Below, piece by piece: positions 1,488 to 6,854 of a stretch of DNA of 64,000 nucleotides. Location: the sequence record OP172784. One strand, written 5' to 3'. This stretch comes from Escherichia phage ECO07P1. The stretch's first letter is position 1, and every line of letters begins with the position of its first letter. The notes under the pieces are model-generated. The model saw only the letters and a program-made list of their open reading frames with translations. It was not told where the DNA came from and searched no databases. A program made the translations under genes and the position numbers.

Positions 1488-1616
1488 TTGGATGTCGGAA
1501 TAATAAGTTAACCGAACAATTCTATGTGGTAGTCTACAACTGAGAGATCTGTCGAAAGAAGATGAAATTCAGAAGAACGTGACTACCGAGTTTTAATCTC
1601 TAACGAGAATTTTTAA

Positions 1617-1865
1617 ATGATTAAACAATTACAACACGCTCTTGAACTGCAACGAAACGCATGGAATAATGGTCACGAAAACTATGGTGCATCTATTGAT
1701 GTTGAAGCCGAAGCTCTTGAAATCCTGCGTTATTTCAAACATCTGAATCCTGCTCAAACTGCATTAGCTGCTGAGCTTCAGGAAAAAGATGAACTTAAGT
1801 ATGCTAAGCCTCTGGCTTCTGCTGCACGAAAAGCAGTTCGTCACTTTGTGGTAACACTGAAGTAA
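1617..1865 (+). CDS. rIII: rIII lysis-inhibition accessory protein
   Basis: 82 aa, same length and sequence as recalled T4 RIII; lies between gene 31 and ligase-side small ORFs as in T4. Confidence 0.8.
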   Translation: MIKQLQHALELQRNAWNNGHENYGASIDVEAEALEILRYFKHLNPAQTALAAELQEKDELKYAKPLASAARKAVRHFVVTLK

Positions 1866-2058
1866 TTTATTGGAGAGTCACTGCCTTAGTGTGAAGTTAA
1901 AACGAGGAGCCGTCGAACTTTGTTTTACGGTGTACCTCTTGAATGATGACGGGTTTATGGTTATCCTGTCGTTAAATATCCAAAACCTATGTTCCCCTTG
2001 AGGGCTTGCGCAGGCAATGCCAATAAGTCCTGCATTTTCATTTAAAAGAGAATTTATA

Positions 2059-2235
2059 ATGGCAAAACAAGTTAAAGCAAAGAAAGCAGTTGAAAAGAAA
2101 GTTGGTGATTCTAAACGCGCTGGCTACAAGCGTGGGTCGAACTCTCGTATCAATCAAACTGTTGAGAAGATCATGCGTCGAGCACGTGCGGTTCTTCGAG
2201 ATGATGCTTCTCGTTTTGGTAAGCAGAAAGCATAA
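2059..2235 (+). CDS. small lysine/arginine-rich hypothetical protein (58 aa from ATG at 2059)
   Basis: ORF MAKQVKAKKAVEKK..; followed directly by a strong hairpin terminator at 2239-2266. Confidence 0.35.
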   Translation: MAKQVKAKKAVEKKVGDSKRAGYKRGSNSRINQTVEKIMRRARAVLRDDASRFGKQKA

Positions 2236-2238
2236 GTT

Positions 2239-2266
2239 GAGGACTCCTTCGGGAGTCCTTTTTTAT
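2239..2266 (+). terminator. intrinsic terminator hairpin
   Basis: AGGACTCC-TTCG-GGAGTCCT followed by TTTTTTATTTT. Confidence 0.7.
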
Positions 2267-2288
2267 TTTCCAAAGATTGCACAAAGTT

Positions 2289-2338
2289 GTTTACAGTATA
2301 GTTCCTTTGTGATAGTATTATCTTACACAAACAAAGGA
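2289..2338 (+). promoter_or_regulatory. early promoter cassette (GTTTAC -35, TGa-TAGTAT extended -10) embedded in an inverted repeat that overlaps the downstream RBS
   Basis: GTTTAC 2289-2294; -10 at 2313-2318; arms TCCTTTGT (2303-2310) and ACAAAGGA (2331-2338). Confidence 0.55.
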
Positions 2339-2345
2339 GAATAAA

Positions 2346-2678
2346 ATGAAAACGATTAATCTGAACGCTACAGTTAAAACTAAATGCTTCAATGGTAAAT
2401 ATGATGAAACTATGTGGTTCTTAATGGCAGTTGAAGGTGATATTATTGAAGTAGAAACAACAGAAGGTATGGGAACAGATTTCACCTTTACAATTCAAGT
2501 TCATAATTTCTTTACTGGTTGGATTTATGAATTGAATACAGTAATCGTTGGAAAAATTGAACAAAATGAATTGGGTGAATGGTATTATGTTACAGCTCGT
2601 CAACGTGCCGAACGCTTAATTGAGAAGATGAAAAAAGTTGGTAAACTTGACATGCAGCACTGGAAAGTAGTAAAATAA
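2346..2678 (+). CDS. hypothetical early protein (110 aa)
   Basis: ORF with strong RBS AAGGAGAATAAAATG and early promoter cassette at 2289-2318. Confidence 0.5.
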   Translation: MKTINLNATVKTKCFNGKYDETMWFLMAVEGDIIEVETTEGMGTDFTFTIQVHNFFTGWIYELNTVIVGKIEQNELGEWYYVTARQRAERLIEKMKKVGKLDMQHWKVVK

Positions 2679-2746
2679 TTGTTTACTTTGGTACAGGATA
2701 TGATATTATATACCTGTACCGCAATTAAACATCTCGGAGAATAAAA

Positions 2747-3112
2747 ATGAATTACATCAACTTTGAACGTAAATATGTTTCTAACGGTATTGCAGGTTCT
2801 ATTGATACTATCTGCCTTTGGAAACATCAAAATGGATCAGTATGCGAAATTGAACAGTATATGACTCCTAACTACGTTTATATGCGATTTGAAAATGGCA
2901 TTACGGTTTCAATCACGAAAGAAGGTTCTTCTTTTAAAATCGCTTTGGATGATGATTTTCGTCAACGTGATTTAGGGACTCATCCTTGCTGGAATGGCGT
3001 TAATCGTAAGCTTCTGGTTAAAACTTGGATTCGTCATATTCTGAGTAATAGAGCTAAACCTGAGCATCTTGAAGCAATCTTTGATGTAGTTCTTAACGAA
3101 TTTGATATTTAA
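2747..3112 (+). CDS. hypothetical protein (121 aa)
   Basis: ORF with RBS GGAGAATAAAAATG; hairpin AAGGGGCTTCGGCCCCTT downstream at 3121-3138. Confidence 0.5.
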   Translation: MNYINFERKYVSNGIAGSIDTICLWKHQNGSVCEIEQYMTPNYVYMRFENGITVSITKEGSSFKIALDDDFRQRDLGTHPCWNGVNRKLLVKTWIRHILSNRAKPEHLEAIFDVVLNEFDI

Positions 3113-3120
3113 AATAAAAT

Positions 3121-3138
3121 AAGGGGCTTCGGCCCCTT
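3121..3138 (+). terminator. stem-loop (UUCG tetraloop)
   Basis: AAGGGGC-TTCG-GCCCCTT; no long T-run, so may act as an RNA stability element rather than a terminator. Confidence 0.4.
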
Positions 3139-3153
3139 ACTGAGGAAAATACT

Positions 3154-3441
3154 ATGTTTATGACTACTTATTTTGATACTCGTAAAAACTTCTGCGAAGT
3201 AGTTTTCTCTAAGGCGCCTAAAGACCTTCCTGCTCATTTGCAGCCTACCAGTGAATCGATTAAAAACTATGTTAATGTAGTATGTCCTTTAGAGTTCCGT
3301 ACTGTAAATGGGCGTGATACTCTAGCTATCACTAAACTCAACCGTGAAATTGACATTGACCCTTCAATCGCGCGCGAAATTAACATTTCTGATATCGGCG
3401 GCGGTAATGTTAAATCGCATGGTTTTCAGATGAGGTTCTAA
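3154..3441 (+). CDS. hypothetical protein (95 aa)
   Basis: ORF with RBS GAGGAAAATACTATG. Confidence 0.45.
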   Translation: MFMTTYFDTRKNFCEVVFSKAPKDLPAHLQPTSESIKNYVNVVCPLEFRTVNGRDTLAITKLNREIDIDPSIAREINISDIGGGNVKSHGFQMRF

Positions 3442-3638
3442 TGAAATTCTTTTTAGGTCAAACTGTTGAATTAAAGGGAGTTGGTATACCTGGATTAATT
3501 TCTAAGGTTCTACCTCCATTTAAATGGAGTGGTATTCAAATAAAAGAGGCTTATATTGTTTCCTGGGTAGATGGAAATGAAGACCTTCGTATGGGTGATG
3601 AATTATCTCCTATCTACGGATTAAAGGAATTAATATGA
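3441..3638 (+). CDS. hypothetical protein (65 aa)
   Basis: ORF start overlaps previous stop (TAATG). Confidence 0.4.
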   Translation: MKFFLGQTVELKGVGIPGLISKVLPPFKWSGIQIKEAYIVSWVDGNEDLRMGDELSPIYGLKELI

Positions 3639-3841
3639 ATATAATTAATAAGATTTTTGGAATTCAGTACATTAAGGTTACATATAAAGTAACGTATAAA
3701 GGTCCGTATACCGATGAACATGAAGAGCCACAAGTTCAGTCTATTATATTAGAAAAGGACCCTAACTGGCCAGTTGAATTTCGTCTTCCTTGCTATGGTC
3801 ATTGGGCTGATGTTGAAATTATAAGTATTGAAAATGTCTGA
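3635..3841 (+). CDS. hypothetical protein (68 aa)
   Basis: ORF start overlaps previous stop (ATATGA). Confidence 0.4.
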   Translation: MNIINKIFGIQYIKVTYKVTYKGPYTDEHEEPQVQSIILEKDPNWPVEFRLPCYGHWADVEIISIENV

Positions 3842-4292
3842 GTTAGAGATAAGAAGCAATTTTAGATGGCCATCATGCGCATTAAGTAATTTCGCCCAAT
3901 GGCCTTTTGTTATGGACGGTATTCAATTTGGAGGTCTCGAAGGATTCCTCCAAGGATGTAAGGTGAAAAATGTTGAACAACAACGTCGCATATTTGGGTT
4001 ATCCGGGCTTGCCGCCCAACAAGCTGGACGAGCTTATGCTAGAGCTCAGGACCGTGGGACCCTCTTCTGGCTTGGAGTTCCGTTTTCAAGATACTCTCCA
4101 GCGTGGAAAGAATTATACACAAATGCATATTTTGAAGCAGCGATCCAAAACAAGGGATTTCGTGATGCATTACAAGCCTCGAAAGGAAAAGTTTTGAAGC
4201 ACAGCATGGCTAGTGGTCTAACAAAAGATGATACAATACTAACCGAAGCTGAATTTATTGATGTGTTAAACCTATTAAGAGACTCTCTATGA
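3834..4292 (+). CDS. hypothetical protein (152 aa from ATG at 3834)
   Basis: ORF; ATG at 3834 overlaps upstream stop (ATGTCTGA); the track start at 3828 is a TTG. Confidence 0.45.
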   Translation: MSELEIRSNFRWPSCALSNFAQWPFVMDGIQFGGLEGFLQGCKVKNVEQQRRIFGLSGLAAQQAGRAYARAQDRGTLFWLGVPFSRYSPAWKELYTNAYFEAAIQNKGFRDALQASKGKVLKHSMASGLTKDDTILTEAEFIDVLNLLRDSL

Positions 4293-5128
4293 AGCCTACT
4301 ATTTTAACTGATATTGATGGAGTATGTTTAAGCTGGCAATCAGGTCTTCCTTATTTTGCTCAGAAATATAATCTTCCGTTAGAACATATTTTAAAAATGA
4401 TCCAAGATGAGAAATTTATTTCTCCAGGTAAACTCTTTAATTGTGATGAAGAACTTGGCGTCAAGTTAATTGAAAAATACAATCGTTCAGATTTTATTCG
4501 TTATTTGTCTCCGTATAAAGATGCCCTGTGTGTAATTAACAAATTAAAAGAAGATTATAATTTTGTAGCTGTTACAGCATTGGGTGATTCTATTGACGCT
4601 CTGTTGAATCGTCAATTTAATTTGAATGCTCTTTTTCCTGGTGCCTTCTCAGAAGTAATGATGTGTGGTCATGATTCTTCAAAAGAAGAGTTATTTAAAA
4701 AGGCAAAAGAGAAATATAACGTAATTTGTTATATTGACGATCTCGCTCACCACTGCGACCATGCGAGTGAAATATTAAATGTTCCTGTTTATTGGATGGC
4801 GCGAGGAGAGCGTGACAATATTCCAAAAACCGCTCAGCGAGTTTATACATGGAATGATGTAGAAAATAAGCTTTTTTCACCAAAGGAAAATAAAGAAAGT
4901 TTTGATAGCGAAAAAGCTATAAAAAATATAATTGAAAAGATGATTAAAAATGATTCTTTTCGTTGGAACACTACCTGGAGAACTCCTGGATTTAATCCTT
5001 ATAATCATCTATATCATCCATATCAGACACATCCGTTTCAGACATGGAACTATATTAAACCTGGTGGAATAGAGTATTTGTATAATAGACCAACTTGTGG
5101 TGATAATATTTTCCAAGGAGCATTCTAA
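4289..5128 (+). CDS. HAD-superfamily hydrolase-like protein (putative nucleotidase/phosphatase)
   Basis: 279 aa; N-terminal DxDGV motif (TDIDGVCLSW) typical of HAD motif I and a later acidic DD motif (YIDDLAHH); function is inferred. Confidence 0.5.
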   Translation: MKPTILTDIDGVCLSWQSGLPYFAQKYNLPLEHILKMIQDEKFISPGKLFNCDEELGVKLIEKYNRSDFIRYLSPYKDALCVINKLKEDYNFVAVTALGDSIDALLNRQFNLNALFPGAFSEVMMCGHDSSKEELFKKAKEKYNVICYIDDLAHHCDHASEILNVPVYWMARGERDNIPKTAQRVYTWNDVENKLFSPKENKESFDSEKAIKNIIEKMIKNDSFRWNTTWRTPGFNPYNHLYHPYQTHPFQTWNYIKPGGIEYLYNRPTCGDNIFQGAF

Positions 5129-5397
5129 TGTTTGTCGTTCACACTATTTATGAAAATGAAGGTAATACTACGCGTGATTACGGTCACGTAAATCAATTTT
5201 TTAGATGCAATCCAGAATTCCGAGCTCAAAAAGACGAACGAATTTTTAAAAAATGTGTAGAGCAAGGTTTCATTTACGTCAAGCACTGGATGCAAGGAAA
5301 TAAAGTTAGAACTACATATCATAAGTCTTTGACTGAGCTTAATGATGAATTGATTTATAATAGAGCTGTAAACCAAACTTTGAAGGATGAGCAATGA
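5128..5397 (+). CDS. hypothetical protein (89 aa)
   Basis: ORF start overlaps previous stop; stop overlaps ligase start. Confidence 0.45.
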   Translation: MFVVHTIYENEGNTTRDYGHVNQFFRCNPEFRAQKDERIFKKCVEQGFIYVKHWMQGNKVRTTYHKSLTELNDELIYNRAVNQTLKDEQ

Positions 5398-6854
5398 TTC
5401 TTAAAATTCTGAACGAAATAGCATCTATTGGTTCAACTAAGCAGAAGCAAGCAATTCTTGAAAAGAATAAAGATAATGAATTGCTTAAACGAGTATATCG
5501 TCTAACTTATTCTCGTGGGTTACAGTATTATATCAAGAAATGGCCTAAACCTGGTATTGCTACCCAGAGTTTTGGAATGCTGACTCTTACAGATATGCTC
5601 GACTTCATTGAATTCACGTTAGCTACTCGGAAATTGACTGGAAATGCTGCAATTGAGGAATTAACTGGATATATCACTGATGGTAAAAAGGATGATGTTG
5701 AAGTTTTGCGTCGAGTTATGATGCGAGACCTTGAATGCGGTGCTTCAGTATCTATTGCAAACAAAGTTTGGCCAGGTTTAATTCCTGAACAACCTCAAAT
5801 GCTGGCAAGTTCTTATGATGAAAAGGGCATTAATAAGAATATCAAATTTCCAGCCTTTGCCCAGTTAAAAGCAGATGGAGCTCGGTGTTTTGCTGAAGTT
5901 AGAGGTGATGAATTAGATGATGTTCGTCTTTTATCACGAGCTGGCAATGAATATCTAGGATTAGATCTTCTTAAGGAAGAGTTAATCAAAATGACTGCTG
6001 AAGCCCGCCAGATTCATCCAGAAGGTGTGTTAATTGATGGCGAATTGGTATACCATGAGCAAGTTAAAAAGGAACCAGAAGGCCTAGATTTTCTTTTTGA
6101 TGCTCCTGAAATTAGTAAAGCTAAAGAATTCGCCGAAGTAGCTGAATCACGTACTGCATCTAATGGCATCGCCAATAAATCTTTAAAGGGAACCATTTCT
6201 GAAAAAGAAGCCAAATGCATGAAGTTTCAGGTCTGGGATTATGTCCCGTTGGTAGAAATATACGGTCTTCCTGCATTTCGTTTGAAATATGATGTACGTT
6301 TTTCTAAACTAGAACAAATGACATCAGGTTATGATAAAGTAATTTTAATTGAAAACCAGGTAGTAAATAACCTAGATGAAGCTAAGGTAATTTACAAAAA
6401 GTATATTGACCAAGGTCTTGAGGGTATTATTCTCAAAAATACCGATGGATTGTGGGAAAATGCTCGTTCAAAAAATCTTTATAAATTTAAAGAAGTAATT
6501 GATGTTGATTTAAAAATTGTAGGAATTTATCCTCACCGTAAAGACCCTACTAAAGCGGGCGGATTTATTCTTGAATCAGAGTGTGGAAAAATTAAGGTAA
6601 ATGCTGGTTCAGGCTTAAAAGATAAAGCTGGCGTAAAATCACATGAACTTGACCGTACTCGCATTATGGAAAACCAAAATTATTATATTGGAAAAATTCT
6701 AGAATGTGAATGCAATGGTTGGTTAAAATCTGACGGCCGCACTGATTACGTTAAATTATTTCTTCCGATTGCGATTCGTTTACGTGAAGATAAAACTAAA
6801 GCTAATACATTCGAGGATGTATTTGGTGATTTTCATGAGGTAACTGGTCTATGA
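5394..6854 (+). CDS. 30: ATP-dependent DNA ligase gp30
   Basis: 486 aa; adenylation motif KxDGxR (QLKADGARCF); translation matches T4 DNA ligase from memory. Confidence 0.95.
   Translation: MILKILNEIASIGSTKQKQAILEKNKDNELLKRVYRLTYSRGLQYYIKKWPKPGIATQSFGMLTLTDMLDFIEFTLATRKLTGNAAIEELTGYITDGKKDDVEVLRRVMMRDLECGASVSIANKVWPGLIPEQPQMLASSYDEKGINKNIKFPAFAQLKADGARCFAEVRGDELDDVRLLSRAGNEYLGLDLLKEELIKMTAEARQIHPEGVLIDGELVYHEQVKKEPEGLDFLFDAPEISKAKEFAEVAESRTASNGIANKSLKGTISEKEAKCMKFQVWDYVPLVEIYGLPAFRLKYDVRFSKLEQMTSGYDKVILIENQVVNNLDEAKVIYKKYIDQGLEGIILKNTDGLWENARSKNLYKFKEVIDVDLKIVGIYPHRKDPTKAGGFILESECGKIKVNAGSGLKDKAGVKSHELDRTRIMENQNYYIGKILECECNGWLKSDGRTDYVKLFLPIAIRLREDKTKANTFEDVFGDFHEVTGL

Follow-up and report, generated by a model that had tools for sequence, protein, structure and literature searches.

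A probable ToxI-family RNA repeat behind rIII in Escherichia phage ECO07P1 and the 30.9-30.1 gene block downstream of it

In Escherichia phage ECO07P1 (sequence record OP172784), of which a stretch of 64,000 nucleotides (nt), hereafter the window, was analysed, the gene rIII is followed by a spacer devoid of open reading frames (ORFs) and then by a row of small genes running up to the DNA ligase gene. What does this spacer hold, and what do the genes encode? A first-pass annotation, made from the sequence alone, had seen at 1866-5400 a variable block of about twelve small early ORFs, one of them for a HAD-like hydrolase, beginning with a 150-bp ORF-free stretch that had no promoter and could encode a small RNA. 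The window belongs to a Tequatrovirus, with 100% identity between its bases 1600-5400 and Escherichia phage ECO07P3. In this genus, the region is orthologous to the early/middle transcription block rIII - 30.9 ... 30.1 - 30 of T4; as such, the gene block is already known, ordinary T4 biology. The part worth following beyond it is an unannotated ToxI-like RNA immediately behind rIII and its wide distribution among phages. ToxI is a pseudoknot RNA that inhibits the abortive-infection RNase ToxN. The best overall explanation, which we regard as somewhat favoured, combines the T4 30.x block, the enzyme AdfN, the HAD phosphohydrolase gp30.2 and a ToxI-family repeat that possibly serves as a decoy or seed.

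A ToxI-family repeat in the rIII-30.9 spacer

The ORF-free stretch measures 193 nt (1866-2058) rather than 150, because gene 30.9 starts at 2059; the annotated T4 start corresponds to this position, while an ATG at 2017 is lost or frameshifted in relatives. The absence of a promoter was borne out, as a consensus scan of 1866-2058 revealed neither a sigma-70-like promoter nor a terminator. Coding by the spacer was ruled out, T4 differing from the window there by indels of 43, 6, 1 and 1 nt, and ARAGORN called no tRNA over 1500-2400; the tRNA-Pro label of the first blast match merely reflected an overlap with the neighbouring gene. Presumably co-transcribed with rIII and 30.9, the stretch is non-coding RNA sequence, and the idea of a small RNA proved right in substance, since a ToxI-family repeat and conserved hairpins are present.

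The repeat occupies 1871-1904 on the plus strand, starting 6 nt after the rIII stop codon, and is a single unit of the ToxI family, i.e. of a type III antitoxin RNA, of the kind called pseudo-ToxI. Its identification came from toxin-antitoxin loci. A pattern scan of IMG/VR returned two loci only, one of them the decisive toxIN contig. There, the core is present as four 38-nt copies in tandem, preceded by a sigma-70 promoter and followed by a terminator and then by an ORF matching Pfam ToxN (E-value 2.5e-37). Because this is type III toxin-antitoxin architecture, in which the repeats encode the antitoxin RNA ToxI, the 33-nt core of the window was equated with ToxI. Readings of this core as a sigma-70 promoter, an IHF site, a RegB site or an anticodon-arm mimic had been considered by eye and were dropped after the toxIN loci were found.

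Plasmids tell the same story. With blastn, the window 38-mer matched 15 records in 7.3 Gb of plasmid sequence, of which four, from Shewanella, Serratia, E. coli and Pantoea, were placed and proved to be ToxI arrays that immediately precede toxN; the remaining 11 records, five of them from Vibrio, stand outside the placed set. The closest match is Pantoea agglomerans pBH6cv2_D, with a promoter, six repeats, a terminator and toxN. Apart from two 1-nt loop deletions, the window unit is identical to the Pantoea repeat at all 31 aligned nt.

Regarding structure, a reference set of 22 distinct units was gathered from ten toxIN loci on plasmids and genomes, including the classical E. coli/Pectobacterium unit AGGTGATTTGCTACCTTTAAGTGCAGCTAGAAATTC. 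For the latter unit, the numbering, the U9-A25 pair, the loop of variable length at U16-18 and the contacts of C27/U28 are those published in PMC3475682. Across the 22 units, 93.5% of the pseudoknot helix cells are paired, 11 of them compensatory; none of 500 shuffles matches this, and slid registers give 29-57% pairing. A covariance model was then built solely from these units, all located upstream of toxN. In the 64-kb window, its sole significant site was 1871-1904 (22.6 bits against 11.5 bits for the runner-up; E 0.006, the E-values being only roughly calibrated), which also remained the only match over a search total of 128 kb. None of 100 shuffles yielded a ToxI match, and the annotated pseudo-ToxI of phage phiTE, taken as positive control, scored 48.8 bits.

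Both helices of the ToxI pseudoknot (2-4/13-15 and 8-11/23-26) can form in the window unit. The second is fully paired (U8-A26, C9-G25, A10-U24, C11-G23), while the first comprises G2-C15 and G3-C14; A4 and G13 stay unpaired, which also holds for the Pantoea unit and for the first of the Vibrio units (L010), the other GGAG-type units having A4/A13. Taken together with the plasmid matches, this makes homology of 1871-1904 to ToxI very probable.

Compared with the ToxI of ToxIN systems in Pantoea agglomerans, E. coli and Pectobacterium, the window nevertheless lacks the tandem array, an own promoter and terminator, a downstream toxN, one loop adenine and the flanking repeat junction. Gene 30.9 comes next, and none of the block's ORFs has a match to Pfam ToxN_toxin. 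Because it is single and has neither promoter, terminator nor toxN of its own, nor the loop adenine, the unit is classed with the pseudo-ToxI of phiTE (Blower et al., 2012; PMC3475682) and not as a ToxI gene. Like the latter, it is a ToxI-like repeat of a lytic phage, intergenic, non-coding, devoid of toxN and on the transcribed strand; one model assigns both to the same RNA family (48.8 vs. 22.6 bits), both have a sub-functional copy number, and both have mosaic or recombinant repeat forms among their relatives. The differences lie in the make-up and in the history of the locus. The 1.5 repeats of phiTE are of an E. albertii-like subtype, whereas the single repeat of the window belongs to the Pantoea/Serratia/Shewanella subtype, bears two loop deletions and precedes a conserved hairpin. 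Escape by expansion is not known for T4-like phages, in which the locus after rIII is kept across genera with replacement of the subtype.

Related units in other phages

The slot after rIII is occupied in several T4-like phages, by units of different subtypes and states of preservation. In Mosigvirus WFL6982, a unit of the E. coli/Pectobacterium subtype (AGGTGATTCGCTACCTTAAGTGCGGCTAGAAAATC) starts 6 nt after the rIII stop, as in the window, and scores 47 bits; it has the U9C/A25G compensatory pair in common with phiTE. In the same intergenic region, a unit of a Klebsiella phage contig reaches 30 bits and that of Serratia phage CHI14 22 bits. The UUAG form of the loop is common to the window and to CHI14, a Winklervirus in which the flanking intergenic DNA is unalignable with that of the window. 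In T4 the unit is more degenerate (14 bits), in WG01 only its tail is kept (GTTAAATCGAGG), and several other T4-like genera show no unit at the rIII-30.9 site. The ToxI-like tail reads AAGUUAAAAC in the window and AGCUAAAUC in T4. Of note, the T4 unit (L001) looks chimeric, its 5' part being of the window type while its tail GAGCUAAAUCGAGG resembles the Mosigvirus (L028) or E. coli type, including the AAAU motif; at sequence level, this suggests recombination between subtypes. In Salmonella phage CGG4-1 (L030:1000-1030), a degenerate ToxI-like stretch, GGTGTAAGCTACCAAAGTGCTAAGTA, is found downstream of the E1 hairpin, below the model threshold.

Among phages at large, the 33-nt core occurs in about 180 records, always unannotated, and the Mosigvirus-type unit in 137, with podophages and a T5-like phage among its carriers. 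At several examined loci, the core lies within tRNA arrays, on the tRNA strand. In unrelated phages, near-perfect single ToxI units (46-52 bits) are located within the tRNA array or directly before it, again on the tRNA strand (sites L005:1500-1534, L007:1201-1237, L013:500-537, L014:502-537 and L012:503-540). With the covariance model, the copies from tRNA arrays and other non-T4 phages score 40-52 bits, that of Phapecoctavirus ESCO13 49.7 bits. The latter also connects directly to the window: a sensitive search aligned 1872-1953 with the tRNA-Gln/tRNA-Pro spacer of ESCO13 at 84% identity over 82 nt (E 2e-14). In a set of 18 phage copies, 92% of the pseudoknot cells are paired, and pair 10-24 covaries between A-U and G-C. 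Complete E. coli genomes yielded no copy of the Phapecoctavirus-type unit.

In ChuuTotoro and PhT2, only about 4 nt separate the end of the unit from the tRNA that follows, and tRNA processing might release the units located in such arrays. Two side observations belong here. In R16F, GenBank has two neighbouring tRNAs on the wrong strand; in phiTE (L040:452-510), the half repeat runs directly into a sequence resembling the 3' half of a tRNA, GGTTCGAACCCGTCCAGTTCCACCA, where ARAGORN calls no tRNA. The literature searched, whose coverage is incomplete, holds no report of ToxI-like repeats from either T4-like phages or the tRNA arrays of phages.

Possible role of the ToxI-like RNA

If the RNA of the window folds like a ToxI unit, it would offer ToxN an antitoxin-like ligand. 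It could then act as a weak decoy during infection, or be a resident seed from which a working antitoxin mimic could arise by expansion or recombination, a course demonstrated in phage phiTE. Any anti-ToxN activity of this single, loop-deleted copy is conceivable, albeit less probable than its homology to ToxI by a wide gap and somewhat less probable than not.

A number of observations weigh against an active unit. Within the repeat, one adenine of A19/A20 is missing (UUAG instead of UUAAG), in a family where T18, A20 and G21-G23 are invariant and A19 nearly so; helix A counts two G-C pairs only; no AAAU motif for ToxN cleavage flanks the unit; and it stands as a single copy, short of the two repeats at least that a tandem array requires. 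The fold of the window spacer is not unusually stable (z -1.06 on either strand, which is uninformative), that of the longer T4 form having a z of -2.63. Besides, the 1.5 repeats of wild-type phiTE are inactive until expanded (PMC3475682), T4 experimentally evolved past E. coli toxIN via tifA and not via the rIII-30.9 locus, and CHI14 is aborted by Pectobacterium ToxIN despite carrying a unit; the ToxIN-escape studies of T4 and CHI14 that were consulted report loci other than the rIII-30.9 spacer.

A bolder form of the decoy reading would make single ToxI-like repeats a widespread functional class of phage anti-defence RNAs, with a post-rIII slot in T-even phages that swaps subtypes in an arms race and with tRNA-array units that are excised in other phages without ToxN. 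Many unrelated lytic phages, among Phapecoctavirus, Vequintavirinae as well as Acinetobacter and Vibrio myophages, have the unit in their tRNA arrays, where, under this view, RNase P and like tRNA-processing enzymes could excise a ToxI-sized RNA, neither ToxN nor tandem repeats being needed. We consider this generalisation doubtful.

About as unlikely is the reading that the unit is an inert relic, i.e. a recombination scar left by capture of part of a toxI array in an ancestral T-even phage and carried passively in the 3' untranslated region of rIII. Its single copy number fits such a relic, as do its two deletions, one of which hits an invariant or nearly invariant position, the further degradation of the T4 copy, the mere tail left in WG01 and the sensitivity of T4 and CHI14 to the ToxIN systems tested. 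Pure decay, however, accords poorly with a unit in which, outside the two deletions, all aligned bases match a live Pantoea ToxI, with the recurrence of the UUAG form in another genus (Winklervirus CHI14), and with the presence of different, well-preserved subtypes at the same site across genera, such as the 47-bit unit of Mosigvirus, which looks like turnover under selection.

Less probable still, and distinctly unlikely in our view, is that the stretch governs the processing, stability or translation of the rIII and 30.9 mRNA, its resemblance to ToxI being irrelevant to function. The position is suggestive, between two co-transcribed genes with no terminator between them, and the very basic gp30.9 could bind its own leader. 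The remainder of the spacer is moreover conserved. Hairpin B (1904-1938, plus strand; GAGG-A-GCCGU ... ACGGU-GUA-CCUC) shows a compensatory change from U-A to C-G relative to the ESCO13 spacer. In T4 and Mosigvirus, its loop receives a 43-nt insert extending the stem (CUGUC/GACAG; CUGUU/AACAG in WG01), the window having the short form and a rIII-30.9 spacer 51 nt shorter than that of T4. It is followed by module E, the conserved non-coding leader of 30.9 (1943-2058, plus strand), which contains the hairpin GACGGG (1948-1953)/CCUGUC (1965-1970) with a constant GGUUAUC loop, then the conserved GUUAAAUAUCCAAAAC (1971-1986) and a second hairpin, GCAGG (2010-2014)/CCUGC (2029-2033). These elements persist in phages without a ToxI unit, module E being present also in T4-like phages whose 5' modules are not of the window's form. 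Yet the compensatory changes in the stems of module E come from a single divergent sequence, Salmonella phage CGG4-1, so that its covariation support is weak, and an mRNA element leaves unexplained the recurrence of these 33 nt, both within the tRNA arrays of unrelated phages and as tandem arrays upstream of toxN. Module E has no match on plasmids nor in Rfam; searched at permissive thresholds with the window and related loci, Rfam gave nothing for the spacer modules, nor for a bona fide four-repeat ToxI array. Separately, the rIII-30.9 spacer of some T4-like phages, as in EC.W13-3, an Enterobacter Karamvirus and a Klebsiella phage (L016:620-760; also L031 and L033), contains an additional GC-rich module about 135 nt long (GCGGCAAGTGCATGCTACCCCGAGGTGATGGCCAATCGGGAGTACGCCTCAAGGCC...AACGGTGTGCAACAGATAAGAGC). 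This module looks structured and has no Rfam match, and its insertion accounts for blast matches about 200 nt longer.

As for a chance similarity of a short AT-rich sequence, the modest score and the rough calibration of the E-values are all that speaks for it, and it is already effectively refuted, its likelihood being negligible, by the isolation of the match in 128 kb with nothing from 100 shuffles, by the ToxI arrays behind the checked plasmid matches, by the transitive homology through ESCO13 and by the strong ToxI at the same position in Mosigvirus.

The 30.9-30.1 gene block, gp30.3 and gp30.2

Turning to the genes, the small ORFs between rIII and the DNA ligase gene (5394-6854) all lie on the same strand, as the first-pass annotation had stated. 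Its count of about twelve came down to nine genes, corresponding to T4 genes 30.9 to 30.1 in T4 order, plus a nested ORF. With 94-99% protein identity to the T4 annotation (Miller et al., 2003; NC_000866), the block is not variable within the genus either, as 482 of the 952 matching phage records span at least 80% of it, mostly at 95-99% identity; it is between T4-like genera that its content differs. Repeats within the block are limited to short chance pairs. It had also been reserved that all ORFs might be identical to annotated T4 30.x genes with known non-catalytic roles: near-identity holds, and the reservation does not apply because the 30.x genes other than 30.3 have no known role. In the literature searched (with incomplete coverage), no paper deals with gp30.1, gp30.2 or gp30.4-30.9.

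Upstream, rIII (1617-1865) encodes a protein 100% identical to T4 RIII and is annotated in both ECO07P3 and T4. All on the plus strand, the block opens with gene 30.9 (2059-2235), encoding a very basic protein of 58 residues, 98.3% identical to T4 gp30.9 and assigned to phrog_1427, for which Pfam, NCBIfam and PADLOC gave no match. It continues with 30.8 (2346-2678; Pfam Phage_30_8, E 6e-60; 98.2% identical to T4), 30.7 (2747-3112; Pfam Phage_T4_Gp30_7, E 1e-51), 30.6 (3154-3441; 97.9% identical to T4; phrog_2153), 30.5 (3441-3638; 98.5%) and 30.4 (3635-3841; 94.1%), then 30.3 (3834-4292), 30.2 (4289-5128) and 30.1 (5128-5397; DUF3045). NCBIfam and PADLOC returned no match for any of the nine ORFs. 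Contrary to the statement that, the HAD-like protein aside, none had recognisable motifs, gp30.3 is a published enzyme and four further ORFs fall in named Pfam families of unknown function. The nested ORF 30.3' (3970-4197; Pfam DUF2883) is 89% identical to its T4 counterpart against 98.7% for 30.3, which is encoded by the same DNA; changes silent in 30.3 alter 30.3', which argues that the latter is not a real gene.

The block genes are largely translationally coupled. Overlapping stop and start codons, already noticed at first, are real at six junctions: 3441 (TAATG), 3635-3638 (ATGA), 3834-3841, 4289-4292 (ATGA), 5126-5130 (TAATG) and 5394-5397 (ATGA). The individual promoters and terminators attributed to several genes, by contrast, reduce to two promoter-like regions and one clear terminator, all on the plus strand. 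By consensus scan, an early-promoter-like site lies upstream of 30.8 (2290-2318; TTTACA-17-TAGTAT with TG) and two overlapping promoter-like sites upstream of 30.7 (2647-2709; TTGACA-18-TAAAAT, with 11/12 matches, and TTTACT-16-TATTAT). The intrinsic terminator follows 30.9 (2239-2268), with a 9-bp GC-rich stem (2239-2260) and a T-run, and phage Aplg8 has a terminator annotated at the equivalent site. After 30.7, a further GC-rich hairpin, GGGGCTTCGGCCCC (3118-3141), has its T-run on the minus strand while the nearby genes are all on the plus strand; it may be an antisense transcription stop or a stabiliser of the 30.7 mRNA.

Gene 30.3 is adfN, encoding the NADAR DNA ADP-ribosylglycohydrolase directed against DarTG1. 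The T4 protein removes from guanine in phage DNA the ADP-ribose added by DarT1, and membership requires the full length, including the C-terminal helix lost in RB69 (PMC11825919). The window protein matches in both length and identity: it is 98.7% identical to T4 gp30.3, both being 152 residues long and full length, with no difference detected from AdfN as described, and its residues 11-150 match Pfam Phage_30_3 (E 4e-70). By sequence, it is AdfN; searched alone against PDB sequences, it gave no match.

Gene 30.2 raised the second question of the locus, as its product had been proposed to be a HAD-like phosphatase or nucleotidase, with dNMPs and cyclic nucleotides as suggested substrates, on condition that the catalytic Asp pair be retained in a structural alignment. 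It is retained, and the HAD assignment stands, although it adds a fold assignment only. The N-terminal sequence reads MKPTILTDIDGVCLSW. In an alignment of 31 homologues covering HAD motifs I-IV, D8, D10, G11 and K132 are invariant, and T96, D150 and D151 at least 90% conserved. The AlphaFold (AF2) model is confident over residues 1-200 (predicted local distance difference test, pLDDT, >90) and disordered from about residue 225; behind motif I, it shows the insertion of a large helical cap (helices 16-86). With Foldseek, the top 50 PDB matches were HAD-fold proteins, almost all natural HAD enzymes, with E-values down to 4e-8; the best matches of low root-mean-square deviation are deoxyribonucleotidase-like, namely 3bwv (template modelling score, TM, 0.70) and human cdN and mdN (0.62-0.66). 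While gp30.2 alone matched neither NCBIfam nor PDB sequences, its family profile found a sole match among the latter, mouse cytosolic 5'(3')-deoxyribonucleotidase (cdN; E 0.017), with D8/D10 falling on the catalytic aspartates and the motif II threonine aligned. On the strength of these motifs and the structural model, gp30.2 is predicted to be a HAD phosphohydrolase with a C1 cap and an intact catalytic site, its closest relatives being 5'(3')-deoxyribonucleotidases. It would dephosphorylate a small nucleotide-like substrate via an Asp8 phospho-enzyme intermediate.

With the 5'(3')-deoxyribonucleotidases (cdN/mdN of the NT5C family and bacterial 3bwv), gp30.2 has in common the HAD fold with helical cap, the DxDGV(L) motif I and the aligned catalytic aspartates, but it is only 14-18% identical to them and carries in addition a disordered C-terminal tail of about 80 residues. 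Against the assignment of gp30.2 count the lack of any Pfam NT5C or HAD match at E <0.1 and the tail itself, for which it offers no explanation. Missing from many homologues, this variable, aromatic- and proline-rich tail (residues 220-279; window 4950-5125) terminates, where present, with the conserved motif GIEYLxxQP(T), which may be a docking peptide. Besides, a metagenome protein of 302 residues (P0014) has a gp30.2-type HAD domain fused to DUF3045 (gp30.1). The fusion may be genuine, and would then hint that the two are functionally linked, or it may be an artefact of assembly or of a frameshift.

In three distant T4-like phages, the gp30.2 homologue adjoins the ligase gene in the absence of 30.3 and 30.1, gp30.2 being the most widely conserved protein of the block; a functional link between 30.2 and 30.3 was discarded, distant 30.2 homologues having no NADAR neighbour. 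This persistent adjacency would suit a 3'-phosphatase of DNA or RNA ends working with DNA ligase, in the manner of the HAD domain of polynucleotide kinase-phosphatase (PNKP), instead of a nucleotidase. Such a role is quite improbable, given that the nearest structures are deoxyribonucleotidases and not PNKP, that no HAD_PNKP Pfam match was obtained and that the large cap is typical of small-molecule HADs. HAD caps are typical of small-molecule enzymes, those HAD phosphatases that act on macromolecules being usually capless, and the helical insert after motif I thus favours a small-molecule substrate for gp30.2.

What these assignments mean differs between the two subjects. About 100 T4 genes are still without known function, according to the AdfN study (PMC11825919), and gp30.2, as a HAD phosphatase that the model predicts to be catalytically intact and that adjoins the ligase across very distant T4-like phages, is a good candidate among them for functional assignment. 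Regarding the spacer, mimicry of a type III antitoxin RNA is documented in one phage only, phiTE, within the incompletely covered literature searched. To this, the analysis adds probable members of the ToxI RNA family among T4-like phages, where the site is constant and the subtype changes with the genus, together with the near-perfect single units in the tRNA arrays of several unrelated phage groups. If these RNAs are active, antitoxin-RNA decoys would be a common form of counter-defence, and the experimental system of T4 versus toxIN, which is in active use, would have an unexamined player.

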